Positions 4,032 through 25,040 are shown, counted from the first letter of the stretch. The stretch: 64,000 nt of DNA from an uncultured Candidatus Saccharibacteria bacterium (GCA_964361795.1 CAYIBZ010000002.1:9362-73361); one strand, 5' to 3'. Made by a program: numbers and translations. Notes: generated from the letters alone by a model not told the origin.

Positions 4032-4760
4032 TTAGTGGAATTTTTTCCAAACTTTAATCGTATCTTTCAAAAAACCGAAAATAATCGCCGGCCTTATGAA
4101 CGCGAAAATCTTCCCACCTGCCCATATCTGGGCCTCGGCAACGCCCCGAGTTCTGGGATAATGATGAACCCCAATCTCCCCTATCGTGAACCCGTTCCGA
4201 AGCGCGGTAAGGTAAATTTCAACGTTCACAACACCCTGCGTCAGATCAGGCAAAAAATTAACGACGTCAATCACCTTGCGACGATATAATTTGAACGCGC
4301 AATTAATATCTTTAACCTTCAGGCCAAAAAGCAACCGCATCGTCCAATTATAAATTTTAGAGGTCCAGGCCCGCATCAAAGGATCGAATCGTTTTAACTT
4401 ATAACCGGTTACGATGTCGTATTTAGAAATCAGCGGCAACAGAAGATCGAGTTCATTGATATCGAACTGCATGTCGCCATCGGTGTAAAAAATCAATTCT
4501 TTTCTAGAATTTTTGAATCCGTCCCGCAATACTTGCGCGTAGCCAAAATTCTTCGGCTTAGCTATAAGCCGCAATTGCGGAATATCTTTTTGCAGTTCCG
4601 TAGTGATCTCGTTGGTTCGATCAATACTCCCCTCGCTCACAACCAGAATCTCGTAATTCTGAAAACGCGGCTTTAAATAATTATTTATTTTCATAACGGC
4701 TTCACGGACATTTTCTTCTTCGTTATAGCAAGGTATAAAGACCGAGATGCTTTGATTCAT
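4032..4760 (-). CDS. glycosyltransferase family 2 (small DPM1-like)
   Basis: N-terminal VFIPCYNEEENV GT2 signature and a DxD-like YTDGD. 242 aa soluble GT2. Confidence 0.7.
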   Translation of the reverse strand: MNQSISVFIPCYNEEENVREAVMKINNYLKPRFQNYEILVVSEGSIDRTNEITTELQKDIPQLRLIAKPKNFGYAQVLRDGFKNSRKELIFYTDGDMQFDINELDLLLPLISKYDIVTGYKLKRFDPLMRAWTSKIYNWTMRLLFGLKVKDINCAFKLYRRKVIDVVNFLPDLTQGVVNVEIYLTALRNGFTIGEIGVHHYPRTRGVAEAQIWAGGKIFAFIRPAIIFGFLKDTIKVWKKFH

Positions 4761-5698
4761 TATTTCACTATAACCTCTTTTATATTGTAGGGAGGTTTCC
4801 CGGTGGATTCATGGTAGTTCCTTATCAATAATTCCGCTAAAAATCCCATCGCGAATAAGACCAAGCCGGAAATAAAAAACAGCGAAGCTACAAGTGGCAA
4901 TGGCGAGCGCCCGAAATCAAAACCTTCAAAAATTTTCAGATAAGCGGAGTAGCCGCCAGAAAGAATAGCCAGAAACCAACTGAACAGGGCGAGACCGCCG
5001 AAGATCAGAAGTGGCCTAACCGTGGACGTGAGAAACCTGACGGTTAAAAGATCCGATATGTCCTTAACGGCTTTCAAAAAATTATGTTTAGATACGCCTA
5101 ACTTTCTGGCGTGATGATTAACTTCCACTTCGGCGACTTTCGCGCCCTGCAAAAAAAGATATGCCGGTAAAAAAACGTGCATTTCTCCATAAAGATGGAC
5201 GTCTTTTAAAACAGACGCGCGATAGGCCTTCAGAGCGCAGGCATGATCATGAAGATAAAGGCCAGTAACTTTGCGGGTCAGCCAATTAGCCAGACGAGAG
5301 AGGACCTTCCTGTCCGCTGGGTCGTGTCGGTTTTTCCGCCAGCCGGAAACCACGTCATATCCTTCGTTAATTTTCGTGATAAGATTAGGAATATCTTCCG
5401 GGTCATTTTGCAAATCGGCGTCCATGGTGATAACGATGTCACCCTTGGCCAATTTCAACCCCGCGTCCAGCCCGGCGGTCTGACCAATGTTTTTAGCTAT
5501 AACAACTATTTTGATTGGAGAAAGTTTTTTGAGTTTTTCTAGGGTCCGATCAGTCGAACCATTATCAACAGCAATAATCTCGTAGGGCTGGCCAATTTTA
5601 TCTAATACTCTAAGAATAGTTCCATAGAGCACTTCAACGCTTTCTTCTTCGTTATAAGCGGGAAATACTACAGAAATCATTACTGAATAGTAAGCCAA
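4760..5698 (-). CDS. glycosyltransferase family 2, polyprenol-phosphate sugar transferase (GtrB/DPM1-like) with C-terminal TM anchor
   Basis: VVFPAYNEEESV and DADLQNDPEDIP motifs. C-terminal hydrophobic helices (LLIFGGLALFSWFLAIL...). Has a start/stop overlap with the adjacent GT2. Confidence 0.65.
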   Translation of the reverse strand: MAYYSVMISVVFPAYNEEESVEVLYGTILRVLDKIGQPYEIIAVDNGSTDRTLEKLKKLSPIKIVVIAKNIGQTAGLDAGLKLAKGDIVITMDADLQNDPEDIPNLITKINEGYDVVSGWRKNRHDPADRKVLSRLANWLTRKVTGLYLHDHACALKAYRASVLKDVHLYGEMHVFLPAYLFLQGAKVAEVEVNHHARKLGVSKHNFLKAVKDISDLLTVRFLTSTVRPLLIFGGLALFSWFLAILSGGYSAYLKIFEGFDFGRSPLPLVASLFFISGLVLFAMGFLAELLIRNYHESTGKPPYNIKEVIVK

Positions 5699-5721: not shown

Positions 5722-6840
5722 TTATTTCTTAAGGATTTTCTCTTTTTCCAATTTTTTCATGCTCTCTTGAAGATATTTTATAGCCTCCGGACAGCTTTTT
5801 GCCCATTCTACAAACTCCGTAACACTATCGAAAATATTTCGCTTGGGCCGCCAACCCAACTTTTTGAGTTTGGAAATGTCCATTATGGAATTACGCGGAG
5901 CGTTAATCCTGAACAGGCCGGGCAAGACCGTACGGAATTTAACTCTCACAAATTTACAAACTGCCCTCGCGAGATCATTTACTCTAGTTTGGCCTCCACT
6001 ACCGACATTAAAGACCTGATAATCCGCTCGCGGATCTTTCAAAACTGTAAGGTGGGCGTCAACAACATCATGAACATTAACAAAATCCCGAACCTGCTGG
6101 CCATCTTCCTGCATTACAATCGGTTGATCGGCCAATGCTCGCACGCAGAAATCCCGTAAGGCTCCGGAATAGAAATGACGGATGGACTGGCGTGATCCCT
6201 GGACAATCGAATAGCGAAGCGCAACGGACGGTATCTGATAAATTTTTCCAAGGATTATAGCAGTTTTTTCTGATGCCCACTTGGAAATACCATAGGGTAT
6301 CACAGGTTTCGGATCATCATCTTCCAGTTCCGGCATCGGTTCAGCTAATGCTTGATCTTTGGGACAAATCACTTCCCATTGATGTCCATGTAATTGCGAT
6401 TCCGGCCGTGATTCGGCGTAAAAAACACCATGCTTCGAACAACGGTACTTGCCTTCTCCGTAGAGAGATTGAGAAGAGGCCACGATTACCTTCTTTATCG
6501 GTAGCTTCTTTTCCAGAATAATTTCATAAAGCAAAGCTGCGCTACGTGAATTAGTATCAAAAAAAGTAGAAAAATCCGGATGATAATCCATGTAAGCGGC
6601 CAGATGGAAAACGTAAGAAACGCCCCGCAGCGCTTTTTCCCAATCTTTCTTATTCCGCACATCGCCCTTCATGAACTTCGCCTTTTTATTAAACCAATCC
6701 GGCAACTTACCGTTGTGAGTAGGCGGTTGAAGATTATCCAGCACCCGGACTCGATAACCATTTTCAATCAGCGCGTCCACTAGGTGCGAACCGATGAATC
6801 CGGCCCCGCCAGTTACTAAAACAAGGTTATTTTTGGGCAT
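5722..6840 (-). CDS. NAD-dependent epimerase/dehydratase family protein with Cys-containing insertion
   Basis: LVTGGAGFIGSHLVDAL Rossmann motif and YGISK (YxxxK). Extended SDR with an inserted segment containing CSKH...ICPKD. Confidence 0.65.
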   Translation of the reverse strand: MPKNNLVLVTGGAGFIGSHLVDALIENGYRVRVLDNLQPPTHNGKLPDWFNKKAKFMKGDVRNKKDWEKALRGVSYVFHLAAYMDYHPDFSTFFDTNSRSAALLYEIILEKKLPIKKVIVASSQSLYGEGKYRCSKHGVFYAESRPESQLHGHQWEVICPKDQALAEPMPELEDDDPKPVIPYGISKWASEKTAIILGKIYQIPSVALRYSIVQGSRQSIRHFYSGALRDFCVRALADQPIVMQEDGQQVRDFVNVHDVVDAHLTVLKDPRADYQVFNVGSGGQTRVNDLARAVCKFVRVKFRTVLPGLFRINAPRNSIMDISKLKKLGWRPKRNIFDSVTEFVEWAKSCPEAIKYLQESMKKLEKEKILKK

Positions 6841-7834
6841 AAATTTTTTCCACGATTCTTAAAGTTTCATAAGCGTCACGACCACTGGGCTTAGTCTCAC
6901 GACCACTTTTAACCGCATCGGCAAATTCTTTCAAAACTAGCGCCAAGGAACGATCAGCGTCCGAATTGCAAATAACTCTGTTTTCTTTCGGAGAACCAAT
7001 AAAATTTCCCGGCCGAATTCCGAAAATCAACTTTTCTTCCCCGCCATATCTTTTCCCTAGCCCTTCAACCTTCAAGAATCCCCTGGTTCCATATATTTCA
7101 AACGAATGGATTGGATCCCAGTTGGTCCAGCTAACATGAATGGAGGCAACCCGGTTTTTGGTGTTTTTCAAAAGTACAAATGCGTTATCGTCAACATCGG
7201 AACTCCAAAACAAATTTTCTGCGAAACCGACAATTTCTTTTACATTGCCCAAAAAATATTTAGCCAAGTCTATCATATGAACTCCTTGATCCAGCAACTC
7301 ACCACCGCCAAGAACTTTTCTGTGACGCCATTCCTTTTTATAACCAGGACGTCCGCCAAAACCGTAACGAGCCCGGATAAATAAAATCTCGCCTATCTTA
7401 CCTTCCTTGATTGCCTTATCGGCTTTCACGAAAGCGTCATGGAAACGATGGTTGAAGGATACTAAATAATGAAGCTTTTTTCTTTTAGCAAGTAAAATCG
7501 CTTTTTGAATGTCAGATGATTTTACAGCGCCCGGTTTCTCGCAAATGACATTTTTGCCAGCGCTTAAGGAGATTAATGAAATCGGCGCCAATAAAAAAGT
7601 CGGGACCGCTATGATTACCGTGTCGATATCATCACGCTTTAAAATATTCCGATAATCCGCCGCCGCCTCGCAATTTTTCAGCATGATTGCCAACTCCTTC
7701 GCGCGATTAATGTCCTTATCCGCTATGACACGCAAAGTAAAATCCGATGAATGCGTAGCTGCCATAACCCAGCGCTTGCCCATTCCACCGGCGCCGATTA
7801 AGGCCAGATTCATTTTTTTATTGATTTTTTTCAT
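6827..7834 (-). CDS. Gfo/Idh/MocA family NAD(P)-dependent oxidoreductase
   Basis: N-terminal LALIGAGGMGKRW Rossmann motif and the EKP motif (ICEKPGA) typical of the Gfo/Idh/MocA family. Confidence 0.65.
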   Translation of the reverse strand: MKKINKKMNLALIGAGGMGKRWVMAATHSSDFTLRVIADKDINRAKELAIMLKNCEAAADYRNILKRDDIDTVIIAVPTFLLAPISLISLSAGKNVICEKPGAVKSSDIQKAILLAKRKKLHYLVSFNHRFHDAFVKADKAIKEGKIGEILFIRARYGFGGRPGYKKEWRHRKVLGGGELLDQGVHMIDLAKYFLGNVKEIVGFAENLFWSSDVDDNAFVLLKNTKNRVASIHVSWTNWDPIHSFEIYGTRGFLKVEGLGKRYGGEEKLIFGIRPGNFIGSPKENRVICNSDADRSLALVLKEFADAVKSGRETKPSGRDAYETLRIVEKIYAQK

Positions 7835-7836
7835 GA

Positions 7837-9966
7837 CTATCTTCCTATGCCTAGATACTTGAACCCGGCCGAGCGGATCTCGGATTCCCGATCGGCGAAA
7901 AAGTTTCGAGTATCAAAGACAACGGCCGGATTTTTCATAATTTGCTTTAGCTTGGTAAAATCCAGACTCTTAATTTCTGGCCCAGGGGTGATAGCAAGAA
8001 TCACGTCCGATCCCGCCGCAGCCTCGTAAGGATCTTTAGAAAAATCTCCTTCCGCTCCGGCGTCAAAAATTTTCACGGAAGCTCCGTGATCTTCCAGCAT
8101 TTTTTTTACTTCCATTGGCAGAGATCTTCGAAGTGTCGGTGTCCCCGCCTTATAGGTTGCCCCGAGGATTGTAACTAATCTTCCCCGAAGACTCCCTAAT
8201 GATCTATTTAAAACATCGATAACCAGATTTTTTCTATCGGTATTTTTCTTAAGAACGCCTGTGATCACCGGCAAGGTGGTGACGCCTGACTCTTTCATTA
8301 TATCCAAAAGAGCGTTTAAATCTCGGCCCAAAGTTCCTCCGGAAAATCCCAAACTCGGATCAAGATACGCCTTGTTTCCGATGCGGGAATCGGAAACCAA
8401 AGCTTTTTTAACATCCAGAATATCCGCGCCGGTTTTTTCACAAACATCAGCGATGTCATACGCGAAGGTCAGCGAAGTCGCTAAAAAGGCGTTCAGGGCG
8501 TGCTTGGCGACTTCGGCCGATTCCGCCGACATCTTTAAAACTGGGCAATTCAACTCGGCGAAAATTTCTTTCATTTTTGCAAACGCGTCCGCGGAACCGG
8601 TGCCGACAACCACTCTCTCTGGGTTAAAGAAACAATTCACGGCATTACCCAGTCTTAAATTTTCCGGACTATAGGCGTAGTCAAATTTTAAACCGGCTCT
8701 TTTTTCTTTTATAAATTCTATGATTTTTTTAGACGTACCGACCGGCAACTGGCTGGAGATCACTATCAAAACGCCCTGTTTCACGAACGGCAAAGATTTT
8801 TCCAAAAGATCAAAAATTATTTTTACATCCGGCTTGTCTTCATCATTAACGGGAGTATCCATCGTAATCCAGAAAACATCTTGGTCGGCGATTTTACTAA
8901 AATTATCGTGGTAGGCAAGACGACCTTCGGATTGATTTTTAGATATCAATAATTCTAATTTTGGCTCGGCAACTGGTGGAACTGTGAATTTCTTCTCATC
9001 AATGCCGCTAACTTTATGTCCCAATTCCGCCAAGCCGGCAGAATAAATCTCCCCCAAATGCCATAATCCAACTACTGCGATTTTATGAGAACGGAAATTA
9101 GAATCCGGATTTTTTCTCAACATCGAATTTCCCAAAGTGGTCCTTCTAAGATTGTAGGTATCGGGATTACAGATTTCGTTTTTAAACAAGGGAAATTTAC
9201 GATAATTATCCCAAACCGCGGAAAGGATTTTGCCGGTAATCTCATTTGCTTCATTGGAAGCCAAAAACAAACAGAGATCGGCCGCTTTTTGAGGCGAAAC
9301 ACCCCCTTCTTGTTTCTGTTTTAGAAAACGTTCATATGCCTCCCGACCAACCTTTTCCGGTCCGGCAGCTAATAGGTCGTCGATCAATTTAGTATTTACC
9401 GCGCCGGGAGCAATGGCGTTGACACTGATATTAAATCCTTTGAGTTCAGCCGCTACCGTTTCATTGAAGCGGGCAATTGCACCCTTAGAGGCTGCGTATC
9501 CGCTAAAATTGGGAAAGGCGCCTTCTCCGCCGCCGACGAAATTAATTATTTTGCCTCCGCCTTGTTTTTTCATAAGCGGCGCCAATGTCTTGATCATTAA
9601 GAAAGTCCCGATGAGGTTGACATCAATAACCTTCCGCCATTCATTTAAATCGTTGTCTATAGCGGGACCGATGGGGCCGAAAATTCCGGCGGCATTAACT
9701 AAAATGTCCGCTTTATCGCCGAATTTTTCGTTCAGAATTCTTAAAATATCATTAGCGACTTTTGGATTGGAAATATCCGCGGAATAAATTTCTATTTTTA
9801 TCGGAAACGACGCGAGCTTGGACTTGGCCTTTTCGAGTTCTTCCTGACTCCTAGAAATCAAAAAAAGATCCGCTCCGGCCTTAGCGAAATTTTCTGCTAT
9901 CGTAAATCCTATTCCTCGGCTTCCGCCAGTAATAACGGCGGTTTTCCCGTTCAAAATCATATGCAT
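7837..9966 (-). CDS. bifunctional-looking fusion: classical SDR (N-terminal) + UDP-glucose/GDP-mannose dehydrogenase family domain (C-terminal)
   Basis: The N-terminal 250 aa carry TAVITGGSRGIG and YAASK (classical SDR). The C-terminal 430 aa carry KIAVVGLWHLGEIYSAGL NAD-binding and the UDPG_MGDP_dh central and C-terminal regions. The position of the catalytic GGSC motif reads GFSGGT, so the Cys appears replaced. Confidence 0.65.
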   Translation of the reverse strand: MHMILNGKTAVITGGSRGIGFTIAENFAKAGADLFLISRSQEELEKAKSKLASFPIKIEIYSADISNPKVANDILRILNEKFGDKADILVNAAGIFGPIGPAIDNDLNEWRKVIDVNLIGTFLMIKTLAPLMKKQGGGKIINFVGGGEGAFPNFSGYAASKGAIARFNETVAAELKGFNISVNAIAPGAVNTKLIDDLLAAGPEKVGREAYERFLKQKQEGGVSPQKAADLCLFLASNEANEITGKILSAVWDNYRKFPLFKNEICNPDTYNLRRTTLGNSMLRKNPDSNFRSHKIAVVGLWHLGEIYSAGLAELGHKVSGIDEKKFTVPPVAEPKLELLISKNQSEGRLAYHDNFSKIADQDVFWITMDTPVNDEDKPDVKIIFDLLEKSLPFVKQGVLIVISSQLPVGTSKKIIEFIKEKRAGLKFDYAYSPENLRLGNAVNCFFNPERVVVGTGSADAFAKMKEIFAELNCPVLKMSAESAEVAKHALNAFLATSLTFAYDIADVCEKTGADILDVKKALVSDSRIGNKAYLDPSLGFSGGTLGRDLNALLDIMKESGVTTLPVITGVLKKNTDRKNLVIDVLNRSLGSLRGRLVTILGATYKAGTPTLRRSLPMEVKKMLEDHGASVKIFDAGAEGDFSKDPYEAAAGSDVILAITPGPEIKSLDFTKLKQIMKNPAVVFDTRNFFADRESEIRSAGFKYLGIGR

Positions 9967-10000
9967 ATTATAGTATAAAAAGGCGATTTTTCAAGTTAAA

Positions 10001-10678
10001 TCAAGAAATCAGCTTCTCAACCCGTTCCAGATCGCTCGGGTTAGTAATATCACCGATAAAGTTCTGAATTTTAACCGGGTAAACTTTATGATCTTTCACG
10101 AATTGATGCAGAAGGGACGTAAAATAATATTCGCCTTTCTGGTTTGACAATGGTGAATAATTGAAAATATCGCTATTTAAAACCATAATGCCGTCAACTG
10201 CGATATTAGATTTGGGGGTCTCCGGTTTTTCTATGACCTCTTCGATCGTCCCATCCAGTCGCAGGGTAACCATGCCGTGAGCGCGCGGATTATGAGATTC
10301 GAAAGTCGCTACACTAAGCTCTTCTTTCAAACAATTTTTAAAATCTTCTTTTTTGGGCAATTCATCGCCATAAACAAATAAAAATCTCTCGCCCGCCTTA
10401 ATAAAAGGCTTGGCCGCTAAAAAACTGTAAGCATTTCCTTGATCAGAGCCCTCGGCAAATATTATTTTTTTACCGTTAAATTCACTGCCCAAAAACTGCC
10501 TGATCTGATCGCCAAGATATTTAACAACCACAATGACCTCGTCCACTTCCAGCGGCAAAGCGTCAATAACGTATTCAATAACAGGCTTATTATTTACTTT
10601 TAAAAGCGGCTTAGGCGTATTTGCGGTGAGGGTTTTCATCCTCTCTCCTTTGCCGGCCGCCAGAATAATCACTTTCAT
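10001..10678 (-). CDS. sugar- or polyol-phosphate nucleotidyltransferase (NTP_transferase family, TarI/IspD/RmlA-like)
   Basis: N-terminal MKVIILAAGKGERMK signature G-x-G-x-R motif. 225 aa, a size more typical of cytidylyltransferases of the IspD/TarI type. Confidence 0.55.
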   Translation of the reverse strand: MKVIILAAGKGERMKTLTANTPKPLLKVNNKPVIEYVIDALPLEVDEVIVVVKYLGDQIRQFLGSEFNGKKIIFAEGSDQGNAYSFLAAKPFIKAGERFLFVYGDELPKKEDFKNCLKEELSVATFESHNPRAHGMVTLRLDGTIEEVIEKPETPKSNIAVDGIMVLNSDIFNYSPLSNQKGEYYFTSLLHQFVKDHKVYPVKIQNFIGDITNPSDLERVEKLIS

Positions 10679-11988
10679 GCGAGCTCATTTTTAATTATTT
10701 GTTCCAATAAATCAACGTTTCGCTTGTAGGAAAAACCGTCCCTGAAGGGGAAATAAATAGCGGCCAACTTTTTTCTTTTTTCGGCGTCTTTATCCGGGTT
10801 ATCCAAATACTCATTGATCGCCTCGGCCAGCTCCAGCTTGCCGTTGTTGATTAGCTGGACGGCTTTGGCTTCTACTAAGGGAAAGTAGTGATTTAGCTCA
10901 AAACTTTTTAAACTCGGCTCGTAATAATTGATTACGGGCTTATCGAAGAGCATTGCTTCCAGAGAAATAGTTGAAGAATAATTAATATTCAAATCTGAAT
11001 ATGAGATTAAATATTTCAAATTTACTAGATCGTCGTCAGATAACATTTTTTCTGGTCGATCCAAATAAACATCTTTGATGTCGGAAAATTTTTTATAACG
11101 ATTCGGAGATGCCAACGGATGGACACGAATCAGAATATTAGTATAAGGAATCTTGCTTTCATCACGAAGATCGATCAACTGATGAATGAAAGCTTCTTCA
11201 AAAAAATGATTTTTTTGCGTAGTATACAAAATGGTTTTATATTTCGGATTTAGATTTTTGCTTCTTAAAAAATTTCCCCTAGTGATGGCTTTTTCTTCTT
11301 TCGTCACATAATAGTCATAGCGCATTGGACCGCTCACAAATACACGGTCCGGCAGAAAATTATGAATACGAATGGCCTCTTGGCGCATCGGTTCATGCCA
11401 AGCTATTAAATATTTAGTCGGTCGAACTCTTGTTGATCGAGTTGTTAGATTATCCCAGCCGCAATTAACAGCCACCGTAGGTATGCCAGCCTTGTTAGAT
11501 AATAGAATCGCCTCGGCCTCGAAATTATTTAGCCCCGGAGTTGATGTTAAAACCAAATCTGGTTTATATTGCTTCGTATAATTCAAAAATTCTGGCAATC
11601 CTTTGACTAAAAAACTTTCGATTTTGTATAAAAACCGGCTGGTGATCAACCAACCGAACGGAGCTGAAATAATTCGTAATAAAGTTTTACTACCGTCTTG
11701 ACCTCTACGATTTCTAAGATGTCTGGTAGTTGTCAAATGATCAAATTCCCGAGTGCAAGAAAACCGCAGGAATTTCATTATGTCCAGTAACTTCTGATTT
11801 CTAATCTGCCAACGAATATAGGAAATGTTGGAATGTTTTCGATAACCAAAATCAGACGCCGTTTCGTCGTTGGCGTGATTAGTGAAAACTACTACTTTGA
11901 ACTTGGAAGCCAGATAAGATAAGTACTGCGTTTTAAGTAAATCTCCAATAAAAGTCGGCTTGTCAACGAATAAAAATACGGTTTTCAT
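10675..11988 (-). CDS. TagB/TagF-like CDP-alcohol (glycerol/ribitol-phosphate) phosphotransferase family protein, paralog 1 of 4
   Basis: About 440 aa GT-B-like. Conserved segments shared with three paralogs in the window (VFVSGPMRYDYY, ILYTTQ, IRVHPL). Resembles Glyphos_transf family motifs; assignment is tentative. Confidence 0.45.
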   Translation of the reverse strand: MKTVFLFVDKPTFIGDLLKTQYLSYLASKFKVVVFTNHANDETASDFGYRKHSNISYIRWQIRNQKLLDIMKFLRFSCTREFDHLTTTRHLRNRRGQDGSKTLLRIISAPFGWLITSRFLYKIESFLVKGLPEFLNYTKQYKPDLVLTSTPGLNNFEAEAILLSNKAGIPTVAVNCGWDNLTTRSTRVRPTKYLIAWHEPMRQEAIRIHNFLPDRVFVSGPMRYDYYVTKEEKAITRGNFLRSKNLNPKYKTILYTTQKNHFFEEAFIHQLIDLRDESKIPYTNILIRVHPLASPNRYKKFSDIKDVYLDRPEKMLSDDDLVNLKYLISYSDLNINYSSTISLEAMLFDKPVINYYEPSLKSFELNHYFPLVEAKAVQLINNGKLELAEAINEYLDNPDKDAEKRKKLAAIYFPFRDGFSYKRNVDLLEQIIKNELA

Positions 11989-12029: not shown

Positions 12030-12053
12030 ATAAAAAATCCCCGTTAAACGGGG
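12030..12053 (-). terminator. intrinsic terminator hairpin CCCCGTT-TAA-AACGGGG overlapping the stop codon of 12044..13030, followed by T-tract on the minus strand
   Basis: Perfect 7-bp GC-rich stem at 12039-12053. Plus-strand A-run 12031-12038 reads TTTTTTA on the minus strand. Confidence 0.5.
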
Positions 12054-13030
12054 ACTGGAAGTTTCTTCAACCAACTCTGATGGCAAGTGCTTAGAACTTT
12101 TACAACCTCGAATCCTTCGGAGAAACCCGTTTCCACTGGCTTACCTTCTATGATAGCGTAAAAAAATTCATTCAACTCTTCCTCAATCGCATCCACAAAT
12201 GCAATCTCCATTAACATTGGTTTAGATGGCGTCTTTGCCCAATCTCGTCCAATTCGTAAAAATAAAGAATCGCGGTTCAGGTAAATGACTCCATCGGTTC
12301 CAGAGATGATGCAATATTTTTCACTCGGAACATTGTAGTTAGCTTGCAAAAATACGGCCGCTCCGTTTGCTAATCGCGCCAAGACAGCGTTGCAATCCGG
12401 CGCCTCTGTTTTGTCAGACAAGTTTTCGATCATGGCGTAAACAGATTCGATGCGTCCAAAGAGATAATGGATCGTATCAATACAATGGCTTCCCAGGGTA
12501 ATCAACGGTCCATCTTTATGTCTCGCCGCGCTAAAACGCCAATCGCCAGGCTTAGTATTGTAAGCGCCGCCATGAGAAAAATTAAAATTAACATTGACTA
12601 ATTTACCGATAACATTATCATCCAACAGCGCCTTTATACGCCGGAAACCTGCTTCCCGTCTTTGGTTGTGGCCAACCATGAAAACTTTTTTATTAGCTAC
12701 GGCCAACTCTCGCAAAACTAATGCTTGCGAAAAATCGTCTACCATCGGCTTTTCCACAAAAATGTGGTGGCGTCCAAGTTGCAATAAACGCCGCAACAAA
12801 CCGAAATGCTGATCGTTTGGAGTCGCGATTATGAATGCTTCAATATCGGGATCATTGCAAACTGCCGAAAGATCCGATAATCCCAATGGGCCATAAAATT
12901 GTGCTTTCTTTTGATCAGGATGATATAAATATTTAACATGCCAACGATTCAGTTTCTGAAGATAACTGTAAATATGTTTGCCAAAATTACCAAAACCAGC
13001 TAAACAAATACCGATTTTTTTATCACCCAT
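12044..13030 (-). CDS. Gfo/Idh/MocA family oxidoreductase
   Basis: KIGICLAGFGNFGK Rossmann motif and EKP motif (FVEKPM). Confidence 0.65.
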   Translation of the reverse strand: MGDKKIGICLAGFGNFGKHIYSYLQKLNRWHVKYLYHPDQKKAQFYGPLGLSDLSAVCNDPDIEAFIIATPNDQHFGLLRRLLQLGRHHIFVEKPMVDDFSQALVLRELAVANKKVFMVGHNQRREAGFRRIKALLDDNVIGKLVNVNFNFSHGGAYNTKPGDWRFSAARHKDGPLITLGSHCIDTIHYLFGRIESVYAMIENLSDKTEAPDCNAVLARLANGAAVFLQANYNVPSEKYCIISGTDGVIYLNRDSLFLRIGRDWAKTPSKPMLMEIAFVDAIEEELNEFFYAIIEGKPVETGFSEGFEVVKVLSTCHQSWLKKLPVPV

Positions 13031-13042
13031 GATGCCCTCAAT

Positions 13043-14338
13043 CTAGTAACCAGTGCAACCATTGCAGGGATAACAAGTATTTTTCTTGCCATTTAGATGA
13101 GCAATGCGAATCTTCATCATCTTAGGACCTTTCCAAATATTATACAGAGATTCTTGGTAAGCGTTCCCTACTCGCAAAAAGCTCAGATAATCATCTTCGC
13201 ATGGATTAACGGTACCGTCACACCAAATGTAAAGCCGGTCAAACAAAACTTTGCATTGGGTCATAGGACACAGATTTTTATGACTCTTATCGGCATTCAA
13301 CTGATAAATACTGCCTGATTGTTCGCCACGGGCATTTTTTGCGGTAAATTCATCAACTAGCGGCTCCCAAAGTTTCCGAGCCGCTTCCGGATCTTGGCTT
13401 TCCTGGAAAAGTGTCATCGAAATTCTAGAACGAACAGTTGTATTAGGAAATTCCCGCTCTCTTATTTCGTTAAACATTTTAATGTTGGAGATCACTTTTT
13501 CAAAACTTGCGCCGATTCTAATTGCTTCAAAACCTTCTTTATCAGACGCATCTACTGAAAAAACCACCGTTAGGGGCGCGCCGATCGATAGCCACTCTCG
13601 TACCATTTTCTCCGACATTGTCATTGCGTTAGTATTAAACTTAATGTCTAAGATCCCTTTTTGATGGGCATAGCGCAACATCTCGGTAAAATGTCGATTC
13701 AAAGTTGGTTCACCGCGGCCAGCGAATACCACCGCACAAAGATTGTGCTGAGCCGCCTCATCAATCAGTTTGACGTATAAATCCCAATCCATAGCTTTTT
13801 TTGGAGATGCCTTAATTTCCTTTTGTAAAACCGGATCAGATTGGTAACACATCGTACACATCAAATTGCAGGCTAAGGCCGATTCAATGTAAAGAACCAT
13901 TGGGAAATCGGCTACTTTGTATTCCTTTGGATAAGTTTTTATCTTGTAACGGTAAACTAAATAGCGTAGGGCTTGAACCGGATCAACCGCTAAATGATTC
14001 AGTGCTACTTCTACTTCGCTAAGAGCTAAAGAAAATCCTTGAGTATCACGACCCGCTTCATCGCAACTGGAAAAATCATAGTTTTTTAAATAAGACATAA
14101 TTGCCAACAAGATAGCCGCCTCAGGATGGATTCGATTCTCAAGCTCGTCCTTAATAGCCGCAATTAAACGGTCAACGGTTTCCTGGCTGACAACAATAGA
14201 ATAACGATTTACTCGATGATGGACGCCTCCATGACTCTGAGACCAATCAAAAATTTCTATCGCCCGTTTATCGTGTTCGGCCAAGACGCGCTCTCTCGAT
14301 TCGCTGATCACTTTCCCATTCGGAATGCCGTTAGTCAT
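13043..14338 (-). CDS. radical SAM protein with C-terminal SPASM-like Cys cluster and 150-aa N-terminal extension
   Basis: CNLMCTMC = CxxxCxxC radical SAM motif. C-terminal Cys-rich region CPMTQC...WCDGTVNPC...CYPCNGCTGY is consistent with SPASM/twitch auxiliary clusters. Confidence 0.7.
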   Translation of the reverse strand: MTNGIPNGKVISESRERVLAEHDKRAIEIFDWSQSHGGVHHRVNRYSIVVSQETVDRLIAAIKDELENRIHPEAAILLAIMSYLKNYDFSSCDEAGRDTQGFSLALSEVEVALNHLAVDPVQALRYLVYRYKIKTYPKEYKVADFPMVLYIESALACNLMCTMCYQSDPVLQKEIKASPKKAMDWDLYVKLIDEAAQHNLCAVVFAGRGEPTLNRHFTEMLRYAHQKGILDIKFNTNAMTMSEKMVREWLSIGAPLTVVFSVDASDKEGFEAIRIGASFEKVISNIKMFNEIREREFPNTTVRSRISMTLFQESQDPEAARKLWEPLVDEFTAKNARGEQSGSIYQLNADKSHKNLCPMTQCKVLFDRLYIWCDGTVNPCEDDYLSFLRVGNAYQESLYNIWKGPKMMKIRIAHLNGKKNTCYPCNGCTGY

Positions 14339-14430
14339 TATTCACCTCATTCAAAGATCTGACCCAATGATACTAAGAAAAAACCCTATTGTCTAGACAG
14401 TTGCAATGTTTCAACGTCTTGAAAACGATT

Positions 14431-14496
14431 TTGAAAAAAATGGCTTAATGCGCTAATATATCTCACAGGCTCTTTGACAATGTTTTGATAGGGGAA
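14431..14496 (+). promoter_or_regulatory. sigma70-like promoter (-35 TTGAAA 14431-14436, 17-nt spacer, -10 TAATAT 14454-14459) and Shine-Dalgarno AGGGGAA (14490-14496) for the B12-radical-SAM gene
   Basis: Consensus-like hexamers with ideal spacing in the 162-nt divergent intergenic region. SD lies 5 nt upstream of the ATG at 14501. Confidence 0.4.
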
Positions 14497-14500
14497 ACTG

Positions 14501-16561
14501 ATGGACAAAAAAATCACCTACGTCGGCGATCTTACGCATACTCGACAAACTGTGGCGCTCAACACAATGCCATTTCCCGTCGGATGCCTGATTAGTTATG
14601 CGAAAAAATTCGAACCGATCAATCAGGCCTATGAGTTTAAAATCTTCAAATATCCGACAAAACTCTCAGAATCGCTGTTGACGCGGCTTCCAGACATTGT
14701 CTGCTTCAGCAATTATTGCTGGAATTTTGACCTTAGTTATCAGTTCGCCGAACGGATTAAAAAGAACCGTCCAAAAGTCATCGTCATATTGGGCGGACCG
14801 AATTATCCTACAGATCAGTCGGAACAACAAGAATTCTTTTTAAAACATCCGGCAATTGACTTTTACGCCTATAAGGAAAGTGAAATTGCATTCTCCGAAC
14901 TCTTATTGAAACTGGTGGAAAACGAATTTAACGTTGAAGCGGTCAAACGCATCAATCCACGCGGCTGCCACTTTCTTCTTAATGGTCAGATAGTTTCCAG
15001 CGAGCCGGCGGAACGAATCCGTAATCTTGATGAAATCCCATCACCGTATCTTACTGGTTTAATGGATGAATTTTTCGATCCAGTCTTAATTCCTATCATC
15101 CAAACTAACCGTGGTTGCCCTTTCGCCTGTACCTTCTGCGTGGAAGGTCTAAATTACTATAGCAAGGTAAACAAACGTTCAGTGGACGTAGTATATAAAG
15201 AACTGTGCTATATAGCGGAACGACTGGCGCCGGCGGTGCACGATCTTCATATCACCGATTCTAATTTCGGAATGTATAAAGAAGATGAGGCTATCGGCGA
15301 GGCTATTGCCAAAGTTCAGGAAAAATACGGCTGGCCGCTTTATATCCATGTAGCGACTGGCAAAAATCAAAAAGAGCGTGTGCTGAAAGTGGCAAAGACT
15401 ATTAACGGCGCACTGCGTTTAGCCGGCTCCGTTCAATCTCTAACCGAAAAAGTTCTGGAAAACATTAAACGGAATAATATTTCAGCCAGTGGGTTGATGG
15501 AATTGGCAAAAAAGGCCAATGAACTGGGGGCTAACTCTTATTCGGAGATCATTACCTGTTTGCCGGGAGAAACAAGAGAAAGCCATTTTCGAACCATCGA
15601 AACTGTGGTGAATGCTGGGTTTAAATGGGTGCGCATCTATCAGTTGATGATGCTGATGGGCGTGGAAATGTCCGATTTAGCTACTCGTGAAAAGTTCGGA
15701 ATGAAAACCAAATTCCGGATTTTGCCGCGCTGTTTTGGCGATTATGATTTCCAAAACCAGGATCCGATCCTCAGCGGAGAAATAGAAGAAATCTGTGTTG
15801 CCACAAACGATATTACTTTTGAAGAATACCTGGAGAGCCGGCTCTTTCATCTAGCCGTAGAAATTTTCTATAGCGATAGTATTTCCGCGGAACTGGTGGA
15901 ATTTCTCAAACTCAATGGAATTTCCGTTTATCAATGGCTGAAATTCATCCACGACCATCGCGATACCTTCCCGGAAGAAATTAAAAAGCTCTATCAGCAA
16001 TTTTATCAGGAAACCAGAAGCGAACTTTGGGATTCCAAAGAATCATTGGAAAGATTTGTTCGAGATCGTGAGGTAATTAAAAAATATGTTTCCGGAGAAT
16101 ATGGTAGTAATCTGATCTTCAAATACAAAGCGCTAGCAATGACTAAGCACTTTACCGATATTAATTCAGTTGGCTTTGAAGCAGCGCGAAGCCTCCTTTT
16201 CGAAGTCAAACCAGAAGCATTTAAATGCTATGCCAAGTATCTGACCGACCTCCAACGCTACACTGATTGCCGAAAAACTGATATCTTCAATACTCAGCTA
16301 AGCTTTACCGAAAAATTTGATTATGATTTTAAAGAATTGGAGCGCAAAGGATTCGCCATATTGCCCGATGAAACCCTCCGTCCTGCCGGAATCCTGCTGC
16401 AATTTGCCTGCACTAATTGGCAAATGAAGATCGTTGATGATGGCTTCCGGCAATACGGAACAACAACTATTGGAATCAGTCGAATGCTCAGTAAAGTCTT
16501 CGTTGCTAAACTTTATAGAGAAGTAAGTTATGCACAGCCTAACGAATTGTTGCACCGATAA
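14501..16561 (+). CDS. B12-binding domain radical SAM protein (class B radical SAM methylase-like)
   Basis: N-terminal B12-binding-like region followed by GCPFACTFC (CxxxCxxC). 686 aa. Divergently oriented to the SPASM radical SAM gene. Confidence 0.7.
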   Translation: MDKKITYVGDLTHTRQTVALNTMPFPVGCLISYAKKFEPINQAYEFKIFKYPTKLSESLLTRLPDIVCFSNYCWNFDLSYQFAERIKKNRPKVIVILGGPNYPTDQSEQQEFFLKHPAIDFYAYKESEIAFSELLLKLVENEFNVEAVKRINPRGCHFLLNGQIVSSEPAERIRNLDEIPSPYLTGLMDEFFDPVLIPIIQTNRGCPFACTFCVEGLNYYSKVNKRSVDVVYKELCYIAERLAPAVHDLHITDSNFGMYKEDEAIGEAIAKVQEKYGWPLYIHVATGKNQKERVLKVAKTINGALRLAGSVQSLTEKVLENIKRNNISASGLMELAKKANELGANSYSEIITCLPGETRESHFRTIETVVNAGFKWVRIYQLMMLMGVEMSDLATREKFGMKTKFRILPRCFGDYDFQNQDPILSGEIEEICVATNDITFEEYLESRLFHLAVEIFYSDSISAELVEFLKLNGISVYQWLKFIHDHRDTFPEEIKKLYQQFYQETRSELWDSKESLERFVRDREVIKKYVSGEYGSNLIFKYKALAMTKHFTDINSVGFEAARSLLFEVKPEAFKCYAKYLTDLQRYTDCRKTDIFNTQLSFTEKFDYDFKELERKGFAILPDETLRPAGILLQFACTNWQMKIVDDGFRQYGTTTIGISRMLSKVFVAKLYREVSYAQPNELLHR

Positions 16562-16598: not shown

Positions 16599-17501
16599 TT
16601 AATTAAACTCTAAGAGATCATTCGCGTCGTAACGAGGAATAAAAAATTTGCTATCTTGAGCTGTAATCGAACGCCGATCAATAGTAACTGCGTATCGAAA
16701 ACCAGCTCTATCTAATAGTTCGACGGCTTCCGCCGCATAACGACCATGCGGATAGGAAAAAACATCTACTTCTTTTCTTAAAAGATCGTCCAATTTTTTT
16801 TTAGAATTCCGTAAATCAATTAACGCGTCATTCATGGACAATAGCTCAAAAGAATTATGGTTATGTGAATGGCTGCCAATTGCCATACCTTGGGAAGCCA
16901 ACTTTTTAACCTCATTAGAATTCATAAACAAAATCCGGCATAAATTATTTTCGTCTAAATTGAATTTTTTAAAATAAAAATCTAAAAATTTCTCCCTAAC
17001 GGCATCTGGCAAAATAATCATCGTCTCTTTAAAATTATTTGTCAGCATATCTCCATGTTTACGACGAAAATCGATGCTATGATCTTTCGGAATCGCATAG
17101 CTTTCGCCCGCCCAATTATTAAAAAGATCGATTAATTCTTCTGGGGAGGAACGAGAAAATAGCACGTGGAGTTTATGAGTCAGTGACACCTTAAATTCAA
17201 AAGTAGAGGTGATAATAAAAAAAGTCCCGGTAGCGCTATATTTTTTCAAAATCGGCAAGGCATTTTCGAAATTATCTTTGAAACCGTCATCAAAGGTAAG
17301 CGCACAAAACTTACCATCTACCCCGTTTTTAGCCGCTTCATAAACCTCTGAAACAGAAACAATTTTAAAATTTTCCGATAACAATTTTATCTGCCGGTCA
17401 AATTCGGCAATTGGGCAGGGATGAATACCTAACCAATCAGGACTGGGGTCACGAACATAGTGATAATTGACCACTATATATCGGTCGTTTAAAGCCGGCA
17501 T
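16599..17501 (-). CDS. polysaccharide deacetylase (NodB-homology domain)
   Basis: LTFDDGFKDN motif (TFDDG) and downstream His motifs (HSHNH). Confidence 0.65.
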   Translation of the reverse strand: MPALNDRYIVVNYHYVRDPSPDWLGIHPCPIAEFDRQIKLLSENFKIVSVSEVYEAAKNGVDGKFCALTFDDGFKDNFENALPILKKYSATGTFFIITSTFEFKVSLTHKLHVLFSRSSPEELIDLFNNWAGESYAIPKDHSIDFRRKHGDMLTNNFKETMIILPDAVREKFLDFYFKKFNLDENNLCRILFMNSNEVKKLASQGMAIGSHSHNHNSFELLSMNDALIDLRNSKKKLDDLLRKEVDVFSYPHGRYAAEAVELLDRAGFRYAVTIDRRSITAQDSKFFIPRYDANDLLEFN

Positions 17502-18820
17502 TTTTCAATTAAATCTACGCTTCTTCTATAAGATTGTCCATCGGTGAATTCAGCATAATTATGGACAACCCACTCTCTTGCCTCACTATCCAACGAGGGA
17601 TTCTCTAAGTACATATTAATAAATTTCGGCAAGTCGGCATCTTCTTTGGCCAATCTTATCGCTCCGCTTTGGAAAATCGGCCGGTAATGCTCAAAGTCAT
17701 AGGCTAGAGCAAATCGGTCAATGAATCCAATATTAATAATCGGCTTGTTAAACACGCAGGCCTCAATGGAAATAGTTGATGCATAATTAATATTCAAATC
17801 AGTGTATTCTAAAGAACGTTTCAAATTAAATAAATCGTCAATATTCATTTCTGTCTCGCCATCAAAATTTTTTCCGGCTCTTTCTATGCAAAGGTCTGGA
17901 ACATTAAAAAATTCCTGATAGTTTTCGTAGATGTCTAAGGGGTGAATCCTGATAAAAAAGTTTACATATGGAATTTTTCTAGCGTCACGCAATGAAATCA
18001 AATCACGAATATATTTTTTTTGAAAAGGGTAGGCCTTAGTAACCGTAGTGTGGAAAATGGTTTTATAATCTGGGTTGAGTCCCTTAGATTTAAGAAAAGT
18101 GTCCCGGCCGGGATTATTTTTATCCTCAATAAAATAAGGATCAAAACGAGGCGCTCCGGATACAAAAACCTTATCCGGGGAATACTTATGAATCGTCTCT
18201 GCTTCTTTTTTCATAATCGTATTCCAGGCAATCAAAAAATCCGTTTTTCTAATGTGTTTAGCGTTAGTGGTGAGGTTGTCCCAACTAAAATCTACAGCCA
18301 CTGTGGTTAACTTCAATCTTTTGGCGAATGTAATTAATTCAGCTTCCCAAGAATCAAAACCGGGAGTGGAAACAATTAAATGGTCAGGATGGTATTGGTT
18401 TGCCAATTCAAAAAAGCTTTTAGACTTAGGCAACAACCAAGATTCAAGTTTCGTGAAAAAATTTGCGGTTAAAAATCGAGAAAACGGACGACCAAAAAAG
18501 CGTAAAATTCTCCGTTTCCTGTTCTTTAAATAATTGGGACGCTTATACCAATGTTGCAGTGACCTCAGATAATCAAATTCGTTCACTAAGCTGATTCTTA
18601 GAAGTTTAAAAAAAATCCAAAAATTAGGATTCTCCAAATTTTTGCGAACATAAACAATTGTGGGCGTTTTGTAGTAATTCAAATGAGTCGCCGCTTCAGG
18701 GTCTAAAAAGGGCGCGAGAACCACTACTCGATATTTTTGAGAAAGATATTTTAAGTATTCGGTCCTAAGAAGATCTCCGCTGGCAACAAAATTAGGGATC
18801 GCTAAAAAAACTGTTTTCAT
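17489..18820 (-). CDS. TagB/TagF-like CDP-alcohol phosphotransferase family protein, paralog 2 of 4
   Basis: Collinear with 10675..11988 (MKTVFL..., VFVSGAPRFDPYF, IFHTT, IRIHPL). Confidence 0.45.
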   Translation of the reverse strand: MKTVFLAIPNFVASGDLLRTEYLKYLSQKYRVVVLAPFLDPEAATHLNYYKTPTIVYVRKNLENPNFWIFFKLLRISLVNEFDYLRSLQHWYKRPNYLKNRKRRILRFFGRPFSRFLTANFFTKLESWLLPKSKSFFELANQYHPDHLIVSTPGFDSWEAELITFAKRLKLTTVAVDFSWDNLTTNAKHIRKTDFLIAWNTIMKKEAETIHKYSPDKVFVSGAPRFDPYFIEDKNNPGRDTFLKSKGLNPDYKTIFHTTVTKAYPFQKKYIRDLISLRDARKIPYVNFFIRIHPLDIYENYQEFFNVPDLCIERAGKNFDGETEMNIDDLFNLKRSLEYTDLNINYASTISIEACVFNKPIINIGFIDRFALAYDFEHYRPIFQSGAIRLAKEDADLPKFINMYLENPSLDSEAREWVVHNYAEFTDGQSYRRSVDLIEKCRL

Positions 18821-24823: not shown

Positions 24824-25040
24824 GCTTTTTTAATATTTTTTTAATGTCACCAACATTTTTCACTTGGGACATTTCTCCTAAATCAATTTTTAAGCCATAA
24901 TATCTTTCCAATTCTTCAATAAGTTTAAGACCGTTGAAAGAGTCCCAACTTGATAGGTTTTCCGGACTAGTCTGATCGTTAATTTTATCCGGCTTAACCC
25001 CAAATGTCTTGGCTAAAATTTCTTCCAATGGCTTTTTCAT
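24810..25040 (-). CDS. acyl carrier protein (phosphopantetheine-binding)
   Basis: 76 aa. SWDSFNGLKLIEELE matches the PP-binding DSL/DSF serine motif. Confidence 0.55.
   Translation of the reverse strand: MKKPLEEILAKTFGVKPDKINDQTSPENLSSWDSFNGLKLIEELERYYGLKIDLGEMSQVKNVGDIKKILKKHGYI

Follow-up and report, generated by a model that had tools for sequence, protein, structure and literature searches.

The question raised by this locus is what a protein of the UDP-glucose dehydrogenase (UGDH) family can still do after the loss of its catalytic cysteine, and why it is fused to a short-chain dehydrogenase/reductase (SDR). The protein is encoded by a single open reading frame (ORF) at positions 7837..9966 on the minus strand of a stretch of 64,000 nucleotides from an uncultured Candidatus Saccharibacteria bacterium (GCA_964361795.1 CAYIBZ010000002.1:9362-73361); this whole stretch is called the window in the following. 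As the best explanation overall we propose that the protein performs a Cys-independent step at C6 of a higher-carbon NDP-sugar, in a deoxygenation that would be analogous to that of LmbL and LmbZ in lincomycin biosynthesis, with the SDR acting as ketoreductase. We give this reading a probability of about 0.5, a compromise between its parts. That the protein is a Cys-independent component of a conserved nucleotide-sugar modification cassette is highly probable, whereas ketone formation at C6 by the UGDH-like domain, argued by analogy, falls slightly short of even odds, and a full LmbL/LmbZ-like 6,8-deoxygenation of an octose is a more tentative analogy still. The proposal builds on the domain architecture, on conserved motif replacements, on genes that occur together and on repeated fusions, all of which are presented below; from these we infer the substrate, the regiochemistry and whether the domain still binds NAD.

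The ORF starts with ATG and has the following parts:

7837..9966, minus strand: fusion of an SDR, a linker and a Cys-less UGDH-family module (709 aa; stop codon at 7837-7839)
9157..9966, minus strand: SDR domain of a special subfamily (aa 1-270)
7840..9090, minus strand: three-domain module of the UGDH family with intact fold (aa 293-709, 417 residues)

Pfam identifies adh_short at aa 8-196 (E 2e-45) and the N-terminal, central and C-terminal UDPG_MGDP_dh domains at aa 295-468, 482-576 and 600-690, each above its gathering cut-off. The ORF also passes TIGR03026 (‘nucleotide sugar dehydrogenase’) with 257 bits against a cut-off of 190, and it misses the equivalog cut-offs for UDP-glucose 6-dehydrogenases widely, reaching 247 of 700 bits for TuaD (NF047673) and 164 of 670 for AglM (NF041297). 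An AlphaFold2 model calculated from 115 homologues is predicted with confidence (pLDDT 92.6, pTM 0.79) apart from a low-confidence linker at about aa 271-290. Compared with Foldseek, the C-terminal part of the model superimposes on bacterial and human UGDH structures with TM scores of 0.83-0.89, a root-mean-square deviation of 2.1-2.8 Å and 24-31% identity. By the three Pfam domains (PF03721, PF00984 and PF03720), TIGR03026 and the fold, the C-terminal module thus belongs to the UDP-glucose/GDP-mannose dehydrogenase family, and the ORF joins a classical SDR to a full domain of this family, as the preliminary description of the sequence had stated. The fusion is not an assembly artefact, since other samples yielded four independent relatives (P0002-P0005, 53-80% identity) that have the same architecture.

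In order to place the catalytic column we used HMMER alignments to the solved UGDHs 4a7p, 3gg2 and 3vtf together with MAFFT alignments. In both, the segment from G540 to D549 (G540-FSGGTLGR-D549) aligns on GYGGSCFPKD of the solved enzymes with Thr545 at the position of the nucleophile, which confirms the earlier claim that the catalytic Cys of the GGSC(F/L)PKD motif is absent. Further motifs are altered as well:

8320..8349, minus strand: GFSGGTLGRD at the GGSCFPKD motif (aa 540-549; Cys replaced by Thr545, Lys by Arg548, Asp549 kept)
9049..9069, minus strand: GLWHLGE for the dinucleotide fingerprint GxGYVG (aa 300-306; second Gly replaced by Trp302, Tyr14 equivalent by His303)
8734..8757, minus strand: SSQLPVGT, with SQLP where STVP is found elsewhere (aa 404-411; the Thr131 equivalent is Gln406)
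8647..8667, minus strand: PENLRLG for PEFLxEG (aa 434-440; Glu161 equivalent E435 kept, the Glu165 equivalent is Leu439)
8485..8505, minus strand: KHALNAF for KYAxN (aa 488-494; K488 and N492, equivalent to Lys220 and Asn224, kept; His489 specific to the clade described below)
8122..8157, minus strand: TYKAGTPTLRRS for FKPxTDDxRE[SA] of the nucleotide-binding C-domain (aa 604-615; TDDxRE replaced by TPTLRRS)

For human UGDH, Egger et al. described six conserved active-site residues, Thr131, Glu161, Lys220, Asn224, Cys276 and Asp280 (PMC3129169), among which Cys276 is the covalent nucleophile (PMC3129169, PMC3265891). A water molecule is held by Asp280 and Thr131, Lys220 is the proposed base for alcohol oxidation and Glu161 is the base in thioester hydrolysis, while Tyr14, Glu161 and Glu165 swing in and out and so govern how the coenzyme is bound and released from one oxidation to the next, Glu165 also holding the nicotinamide in position (PMC3129169). 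The REPLACEMENTS of the UGDH-like domain was interpreted by mapping onto these roles. The equivalents of Lys220 (K488), Asn224 (N492), Asp280 (D549) and Glu161 (E435) are kept, and all four are invariant in the clade; Cys276, Thr131, Glu165, Tyr14 and Gly13 are replaced by T545, Q406, L439, H303 and W302. Mapped in this way, the kept Lys/Asn/Asp set corresponds to the alcohol-oxidation machinery, whereas the replaced residues are those assigned to aldehyde trapping, thioester hydrolysis, the catalytic water and the reloading of NAD+ in mid-cycle. The conserved Lys and Arg of the FKxxT..R motif in the C-domain are retained. Since covalent catalysis and coenzyme exchange have lost their residues and the alcohol-oxidation core is kept, we infer that the UGDH-like domain can no longer make uronic acid and would perform at most one step at the C6 carbinol. 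Without the Cys the four-electron conversion of UDP-glucose to glucuronate is implausible, and the two-electron oxidation offered in the preliminary description appears chemically most coherent with the kept core and the replaced second-oxidation residues. Its account of the residues was incomplete, however, since the Rossmann fingerprint, the equivalents of Thr131, Glu165 and Tyr14 and also the catalytic Ser of the SDR are replaced in addition to the Cys.

Could the domain nevertheless be a true uronic-acid-forming dehydrogenase that uses Thr545 or water as nucleophile? The complete three-domain architecture, the passed TIGR03026 cut-off and the retained Glu161 equivalent would fit such an enzyme, but we regard it as very improbable, as covalent catalysis by Cys276 is established for UGDH (PMC3265891, PMC3129169), the Thr131, Glu165 and Tyr14 equivalents have been replaced too, the Cys column is occupied by His in a sub-variant and by Ala in one representative, and the scores stay far below the TuaD and AglM equivalog cut-offs. 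Nor is the nucleophile relocated to C509, the only well-conserved Cys (at least 70% in the clade), because the canonical UGDHs 4a7p and 3gg2 have this residue alongside their catalytic Cys.

The remodelled active site is shared by a large group of proteins. A homologue search over 5.8 billion proteins was carried out, from which the best 120 matches were taken, and 118 more were collected with a relative from a genome of 68% GC as query; all of them carry the replacement set of the query. The resulting signature consists of GLWHLG, SQxP, PENLRLG, KHAxN, GGTLxRD and TxTLRRS and is invariant or nearly so in the 238 aligned members. Residues conserved in at least 98% of this alignment are G300, W302, H303, G305, D370-T371-P372, D377 and S405-Q406, followed by P434-E435-N436-L437, L439-G440, K488-H489, N492, R528 and G543, and finally T545-L546, R548-D549, K606, T611-L612-R613 and S615. 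Among 316 collected members the Cys column holds Thr in 272 and His in 32 and never Cys, with 12 sequences unmatched by the regular expression. An exhaustive HMMER search of 1.84 billion representatives at 50% identity gave 150 matches, all above 420 bits, and about 145 of these were further representatives that again carry the signature, with Thr (135) or Ala (1) in the column or unmatched (10). Two matches were set aside: P0317 (942 aa) is a tandem of two canonical UGDH domains (GAGYVG, STVPVG, GGCLPKD), and in P0366 (910 aa), which also contains two UGDH-like domains, the fingerprint is canonical (GGGYVG) and the motifs of the clade are all missing.

With more than 140 clusters at 50% identity the clade is, judged from these alignments, deep and under strong purifying selection on an alternative active site. 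The loss of the Cys, described before as a peculiarity of this one protein, is real, yet it is not a one-off but part of a diagnostic signature of at least 10 co-varying active-site changes including GLWHLG. The clade can thus be regarded as a large, conserved and unstudied branch of the UDP-glucose/GDP-mannose dehydrogenase family with a new, strictly conserved residue set, and our literature search found no description of a Cys-less UGDH clade, of its SDR fusion or of the gene cassette discussed below. Hundreds of its proteins are labelled ‘UDP-glucose 6-dehydrogenase’ or ‘nucleotide sugar dehydrogenase’, yet they are almost certainly unable to make uronic acid, and the signature would correct these annotations. 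The clade also represents a natural experiment in re-tooling the scaffold of a four-electron dehydrogenase for another reaction.

Such conservation also bears on two simpler views of the protein. A binding or scaffold module, which the preliminary description had considered, is disfavoured by the invariance (at least 98%) of the remodelled active-site residues across phyla. The canonical catalytic residues are lost in both halves, as would be expected of a decayed pseudo-enzyme or of an artefactual fusion without function, but this explanation is effectively refuted and its probability negligible: the replacements are invariant at this level in hundreds of sequences from several phyla, the fusion recurs independently and in both orders, the genes show an operon-like spacing and the model is confident.

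A small offshoot centred on the candidate phyla radiation (CPR) forms a His-type sub-variant, with GFSGGHLERD at the Cys column, TLAHS or TLTHS in place of TLRRS, and S, W, E or the canonical G at the Rossmann position of Trp302. Its members in the loci described below (numbered L001 onwards) are:

L007:539-1804, His-type UGDH-like protein
L008:9998-11299, His-type UGDH-like protein
L011:1701-2879, His-type UGDH-like protein
L012:9890-10957, His-type UGDH-like protein

The SDR half is remodelled in a similarly systematic manner. The query has the classical motifs TGGSRGIG (aa 13-20), NAAG (91-94), the Asn in DVNLIG (115-120) and YAASK (157-161, with Y157 and K161), and all partner SDRs, fused or adjacent, keep TGxxxGxG, NNAG, this Asn and Tyr-x3-Lys. 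Two features deviate when the catalytic columns are read from an alignment with the solved SDRs 1vl8, 2yz7 and 4jro:

9520..9543, minus strand: NFVGGGEG (aa 142-149), with Gly145 in the column of the classical catalytic Ser
9142..9222, minus strand: C-terminal SDR extension SAVWDNY...YNLRR (aa 249-275), not found in classical SDRs and followed by the low-pLDDT linker

All partner SDRs, including those of L001, L003, L009, L014-L017, L020 and L021, have GGG without variation where the catalytic Ser would stand; the group-2 partners have a Ser one position before the classical column. The C-terminal tail is likewise conserved among the partners as SAVWDxW...D.YTLRR. From these motifs the partner SDR is best described as a dedicated subfamily and not as a generic reductase. 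It comprises at least three paralogue types: type A occupies the adjacent slot and also occurs in C-terminal fusions, type B is found as an additional fusion at the N-terminus, and the SDR of the window belongs to a CPR type. Some cassettes carry two copies of the GGG-type SDR.

We found 13 fusions in the order SDR to UGDH-like and 5 in the reverse order among the homologue matches, and four more among the representatives at 50% identity; fused proteins make up about 5% of the clade members, in agreement with the earlier statement that the fusion is uncommon. Many of them are nearer to standalone proteins than to other fusions, as for P0017, which is 82% identical to a standalone protein and 54% to the nearest fusion of the same order. 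By these relationships the SDR and the UGDH-like protein have been fused repeatedly, independently and in both orders, which is strong evidence that the two work together. A coupled reductase, the role foreseen for the SDR in the preliminary description, would fit both the repeated fusions and the adjacency of the genes.

To what pathway the pair may belong is indicated by its genomic context, which the preliminary description did not include. We compared 16 independent loci, comprising the window and loci from Patescibacteria, a Woesearchaeota archaeon, gammaproteobacterial metagenome-assembled genomes (MAGs), a genome of 68% GC, an Acidobacteriota MAG, Rhizobium jaguaris pRCCGE525c and Lawsonia intracellularis plasmid 3. 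A GGG-type SDR is adjacent or fused to the UGDH-like gene in 14 of them, and an orthologous Gfo/Idh/MocA oxidoreductase is its neighbour in 15. The cassette further contains a nucleotidyltransferase (NTP-transferase; 14 loci), a GHMP kinase (13), a transaldolase of the TAL/FSA family (12) and an extended-SDR epimerase (12), with a SIS_2 isomerase and a HAD phosphatase as usual companions. In R. jaguaris the order is epimerase, UGDH-like, SDR, Gfo/Idh/MocA, GHMP kinase, NTP-transferase, SIS isomerase, HAD phosphatase and transaldolase. By analogy, this context points to a higher-carbon sugar and an LmbL/LmbZ-like deoxygenation and not to a UDP-hexose.

The analogy is drawn to the octose of lincomycin and celesticetin. 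According to the pathway outlines in PMC4351081 and PMC12945683, LmbR (transaldolase) and LmbN (isomerase) build octose 8-phosphate, further steps are assigned to the kinase P, phosphatase K, nucleotidyltransferase O, epimerase M, dehydrogenase L, NAD(P) oxidoreductase Z and aminotransferase S families of the lmb and ccb clusters, and LmbM, LmbL, CcbZ and CcbS turn GDP-octose into GDP-lincosamide. In both systems a UGDH-family protein (the ‘C8 dehydrogenase’ of about 430 aa; CcbL has 436 aa) is encoded with a Gfo/Idh/MocA protein, and most of the related loci have an extended-SDR epimerase, transaldolase, SIS isomerase, GHMP kinase, HAD phosphatase and nucleotidyltransferase as counterparts of LmbR/N/P/K/O/M. 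Table 2 of PMC4351081 lists the lmb genes in the order K-L-M-N-Z-P-O-S-R, in which Z-P-O equals the Gfo-GHMP-NTP run of L005, L014, L016 and L017. According to the supplement of the celesticetin paper, the nearest non-lincosamide relatives listed for CcbK, CcbZ and CcbO are all from Acidobacteria (Solibacter usitatus with 49%, an uncultured Acidobacteria bacterium with 40% and Acidobacterium capsulatum with 38%), a phylum that carries the cassette. The systems differ in that lincomycin biosynthesis has the aminotransferase LmbS where a GGG-type classical SDR, often fused, is found here, with no DegT-type aminotransferase in the module, and in their setting, which is an antibiotic cluster for the former, whereas the cassette lies in loci for cell-surface glycans in Patescibacteria, DPANN, Proteobacteria, Acidobacteriota and Lawsonia. 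Of these counterparts, only the NTP-transferase and the epimerase are present in the window, which is without genes for sugar-phosphate supply. A putative kinship to LmbL (ABX00608) and CcbL (in GQ844764) is suggested by family membership and gene content. Neither protein is among the named matches of the homologue searches, and the Streptomyces and Nonomuraea matches of a tblastn search of PLSDB are canonical UGDHs (GAGYIG, STVPVGT).

We therefore suggest the following sequence of steps. The UGDH-like domain would bind a nucleotide-activated sugar of the heptose or octose type in the way known for UGDH and UDP-glucose, so that C6 lies in the active site, and would oxidise the secondary alcohol at C6 once to the 6-ketone. 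Because C6 is secondary in such sugars, one oxidation would give a ketone and neither a thiohemiacetal nor a thioester, and hence no Cys would be needed. The distal hydroxyl would then be lost in a redox-neutral elimination that the Gfo/Idh/MocA partner completes, by analogy with LmbL and LmbZ/CcbZ, and the SDR would reduce the keto group where LmbS would transaminate, giving a deoxy higher-carbon sugar nucleotide. For the lincosamides, Wang et al. (PNAS 2020) reportedly resolved the steps on GDP-octose into 6-epimerisation, 6,8-dehydration, 4-epimerisation and 6-transamination, which would leave the 6,8-dehydration to LmbL and CcbZ. The sugar might be activated by the neighbouring NTP-transferase, and the product would be installed in a surface glycopolymer by GT2 (family 2) glycosyltransferases and TagF-like enzymes. 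The repeated fusions would be in keeping with this scheme, as they join its first and its last catalyst, which share one target carbon. The logic is known from 6-deoxyhexoses, where a secondary alcohol is oxidised, the hydroxyl two carbons away is eliminated and the intermediate re-reduced by one enzyme (RmlB), and a separate reductase (RmlD) reduces the ketone. The resemblance to NDP-hexose 4,6-dehydratase and 4-ketoreductase is one of analogy, as the proposed steps would be spread over UGDH-like, Gfo/Idh/MocA and classical SDR folds and would take place at C6 and C8 of the exocyclic chain and not on the ring.

Several cassette enzymes have their best NCBIfam matches among the enzymes of GDP-D-glycero-alpha-D-manno-heptose biosynthesis: the SIS, GHMP, HAD and NTP proteins are homologous to GmhA, HddA, GmhB and HddC and would act in the same order, and the epimerase weakly matches the ADP-heptose 6-epimerase. 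The cassette might accordingly make an NDP-glycero-manno-heptose, with the UGDH-like domain oxidising C6 and the SDR re-reducing it with opposite stereochemistry, or with the 6-keto group kept, and with no deoxygenation at all. An oxidase fused to a reductase for the same carbon would be natural for such an epimerising pair, and L001, with nothing but the UGDH-like gene, SDR and transaldolase, would suit it as well. We nevertheless consider this explanation unlikely. The scores are all far below the equivalog cut-offs (51-54 against 209 bits for GmhA, 143 against 600 for HddA, 141 against 178 for GmhB and 67 against 300 for HddC), the Gfo/Idh/MocA protein found at nearly all loci has no role in the scheme, and the dedicated transaldolase is an enzyme that the octose pathway needs. 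Compared with the heptose pathway, the cassette adds this transaldolase, the Cys-less UGDH-like protein, the Gfo/Idh/MocA protein and the special SDR; we know of no characterised heptose cluster that contains any of them. As SIS, GHMP, HAD and NTP proteins far below the heptose cut-offs occur together with a dedicated transaldolase, the octose pathway is the described combination that fits.

A number of points weigh against the proposed C6 oxidation and octose deoxygenation. L001 is the one locus of the 16 without a Gfo/Idh/MocA partner. L008 and L012 lack the SDR, and the idea that SDR-less loci carry an aminotransferase instead was dropped as none was found in either of them on inspection; the cassette family therefore shows no simple swap between SDR and aminotransferase. 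The 64-kb window contains no gene for a transaldolase or for a SIS, GHMP or HAD protein, so these functions would have to be encoded elsewhere or be dispensable in this organism. Since the partner SDR is without the classical catalytic Ser, its role as a ketoreductase is putative. Regarding the lincosamides, the best outside match listed for CcbL in 2015 was only 33% identical (celesticetin supplement), and LmbL may therefore not belong to the clade and the kinship may be distant. The last point concerns the coenzyme: the second fingerprint Gly is Trp in at least 98% of the Thr-type proteins, a residue which in ordinary Rossmann folds would clash with the NAD pyrophosphate, and redox activity of the UGDH-like domain is therefore not assured.

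This Trp is at the centre of another explanation, in which the UGDH-like domain no longer binds NAD and takes no part in redox chemistry, being either an NDP-sugar-binding acid/base catalyst for elimination or enolisation or a substrate-presenting partner, while the Gfo/Idh/MocA protein and the SDR perform the hydride chemistry. The change from GxGxxG to GLWHLG and the replacement of Tyr14 and Glu165, which serve in nicotinamide positioning and coenzyme exchange, would agree with it, and acid/base groups could be provided by the new invariant residues His303, His489, Gln406 and Arg548. Transient oxidation with bound NAD is known from some enzymes of the Gfo/Idh/MocA family, which also counts in its favour. 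However, the Asp at the end of beta2 (D323), which serves the adenosine ribose, is kept in at least 70% of the members along with the TP motif and R613 of the C-domain, and D323 and R613 suggest that a dinucleotide still binds. The Lys/Asn/Asp set for alcohol oxidation is invariant, and Trp302 is not essential to the family because its position varies in the His-type sub-variant. LmbL, moreover, is still listed as ‘dehydrogenase’ in a 2025 review (PMC12945683). We thus judge a non-redox role improbable, though not far-fetched, and keep the single oxidation at C6 as the preferred reading. Canonical UGDHs (human UGDH, BceC, UgdG 4a7p and 3gg2) share the three-domain fold and the Lys220, Asn224, Asp280 and Glu161 equivalents with the clade but have the catalytic Cys, GxGYVG, Thr131, Glu165, PKD and TDDxRE where the clade has Thr545, GLWHLG, Gln, Leu, GRD and TxTLRRS.

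A further-reaching proposal is that the Cys-less proteins are a new class, either of ketone-forming C6 dehydrogenases or of NAD-retaining dehydratase components, which together with Gfo/Idh/MocA and GGG-type SDR proteins make a lincosamine-like 8-deoxy-octose for the cell envelopes of Patescibacteria, DPANN archaea, Acidobacteriota, rhizobia and Lawsonia. In this specific form we hold it to be rather unlikely. If true, the lincomycin sugar pathway would have been recruited from a widespread and unrecognised primary glycan pathway, and the LmbL/LmbZ parallel would in this way offer an evolutionary origin for the lincosamide sugar pathway. In more general terms, an unusual deoxy sugar of the higher-carbon type is probably what the conserved cassette of eight to nine genes produces for the surfaces of uncultured episymbionts, soil Acidobacteriota, rhizobia and Lawsonia intracellularis, and with R. 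jaguaris and Lawsonia as cultured carriers the chemistry is directly testable.

In the window the fusion gene lies within a tightly packed run on the minus strand, consisting of the TagF-like gene, the NTP-transferase, the fusion, the Gfo/Idh/MocA gene, the epimerase and two GT2 genes, and its spacing to the neighbouring genes is tight and operon-like:

10675..11988, minus strand: TagF-like gene (Glyphos_transf), probably the first gene of the transcription unit
10001..10678, minus strand: sugar-1-phosphate nucleotidyltransferase, orthologous to the cassette NTP-transferase of L007, L008, L010 and L012 (E 1e-77 to 1e-84)
6827..7834, minus strand: Gfo/Idh/MocA oxidoreductase, beginning 3 nt past the stop of the fusion, with canonical GAGGMG, EKP and D..H motifs
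5722..6840, minus strand: extended-SDR ‘epimerase’ of 372 aa, overlapping the Gfo/Idh/MocA gene by 14 nt, with orthologues in L003, L007, L008 and L010 (E 1e-133 to 1e-171)
4760..5698, minus strand: GT2 glycosyltransferase, found with the module in the CPR loci L001 and L010 (E 1e-117 and 1e-132), a candidate transferase for the product sugar

The Gfo/Idh/MocA, epimerase and NTP-transferase genes of the window are clearly orthologous to their counterparts at the other loci (E 1e-77 to 1e-171). A terminator-like hairpin at 12036-12056, just upstream of the TagF-like gene, is a plausible terminator. The best sigma-70-like match of the region, TTGAAA-16-TATAAT (11/12) at 9967-9994 on the minus strand, ends 1 nt before the ATG of the fusion and would imply a leaderless transcript or an internal start at Met3; taken as a whole, the promoter and terminator matches do not exceed chance level. 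Rfam and tRNA scans of the whole 64 kb gave no matches.

Some of the other loci show peculiarities of their own. In L014 (14155-15462) the NTP-transferase and the SIS_2 isomerase of the cassette are fused into a protein of 435 aa, a second Rosetta-stone link in the pathway. L016 (Lawsonia intracellularis plasmid 3, NC_008014.1, about 14.5-22.9 kb) has the full cassette on a plasmid of a pig pathogen; a gene for an MprF-like membrane protein separates the transaldolase from the UGDH-like gene, and the GHMP kinase is annotated as ‘galactokinase’ in RefSeq. The Lawsonia UGDH-like protein is WP_011527333.1, its SDR WP_011527332.1 and its Gfo/Idh/MocA protein WP_011527331.1. In the cassettes of the high-GC exopolysaccharide loci L005, L014 and L015 no GmhB-like HAD phosphatase was seen, whereas the CPR, Rhizobium and Lawsonia loci have one. 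Should this phosphatase really be missing, the terminal phosphate might stay on the activated sugar and would then offer the proposed elimination a better leaving group. On the minus strand of L012 (1027-3162) we found an ORF of 711 aa with a sortase domain (aa 117-250) and Rho RNA-binding and ATPase domains, which may be a Rho factor of unusual build, with a sortase-like insertion near its N-terminus, or else the result of ORFs merged in the MAG.

Beside the module the window encodes a second Gfo/Idh/MocA protein (12044-13030) and a radical-SAM/SPASM protein (13043-14338; SAM, S-adenosylmethionine), followed by a divergently transcribed B12-binding radical-SAM gene (14501-16561) and next to it a polysaccharide deacetylase. 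The extra genes at 12044-16561 suggest further unusual sugar tailoring. About 50 kb of the window (1-50500) form one glycan-assembly island. It contains three TagF-like transferases (10675-11988, 17489-18820 and 39214-40569), many GT4 and GT2 genes including one for a double-GT4 protein of 741 aa (46300-48525), at least 9 SAM methyltransferases, a flippase (40569-41960) and a YfhO-like protein (30436-32586), as well as an AMP-binding enzyme, a PanE-like reductase and a fatty-acid-desaturase-like gene (25037-27785, 33487-34530).

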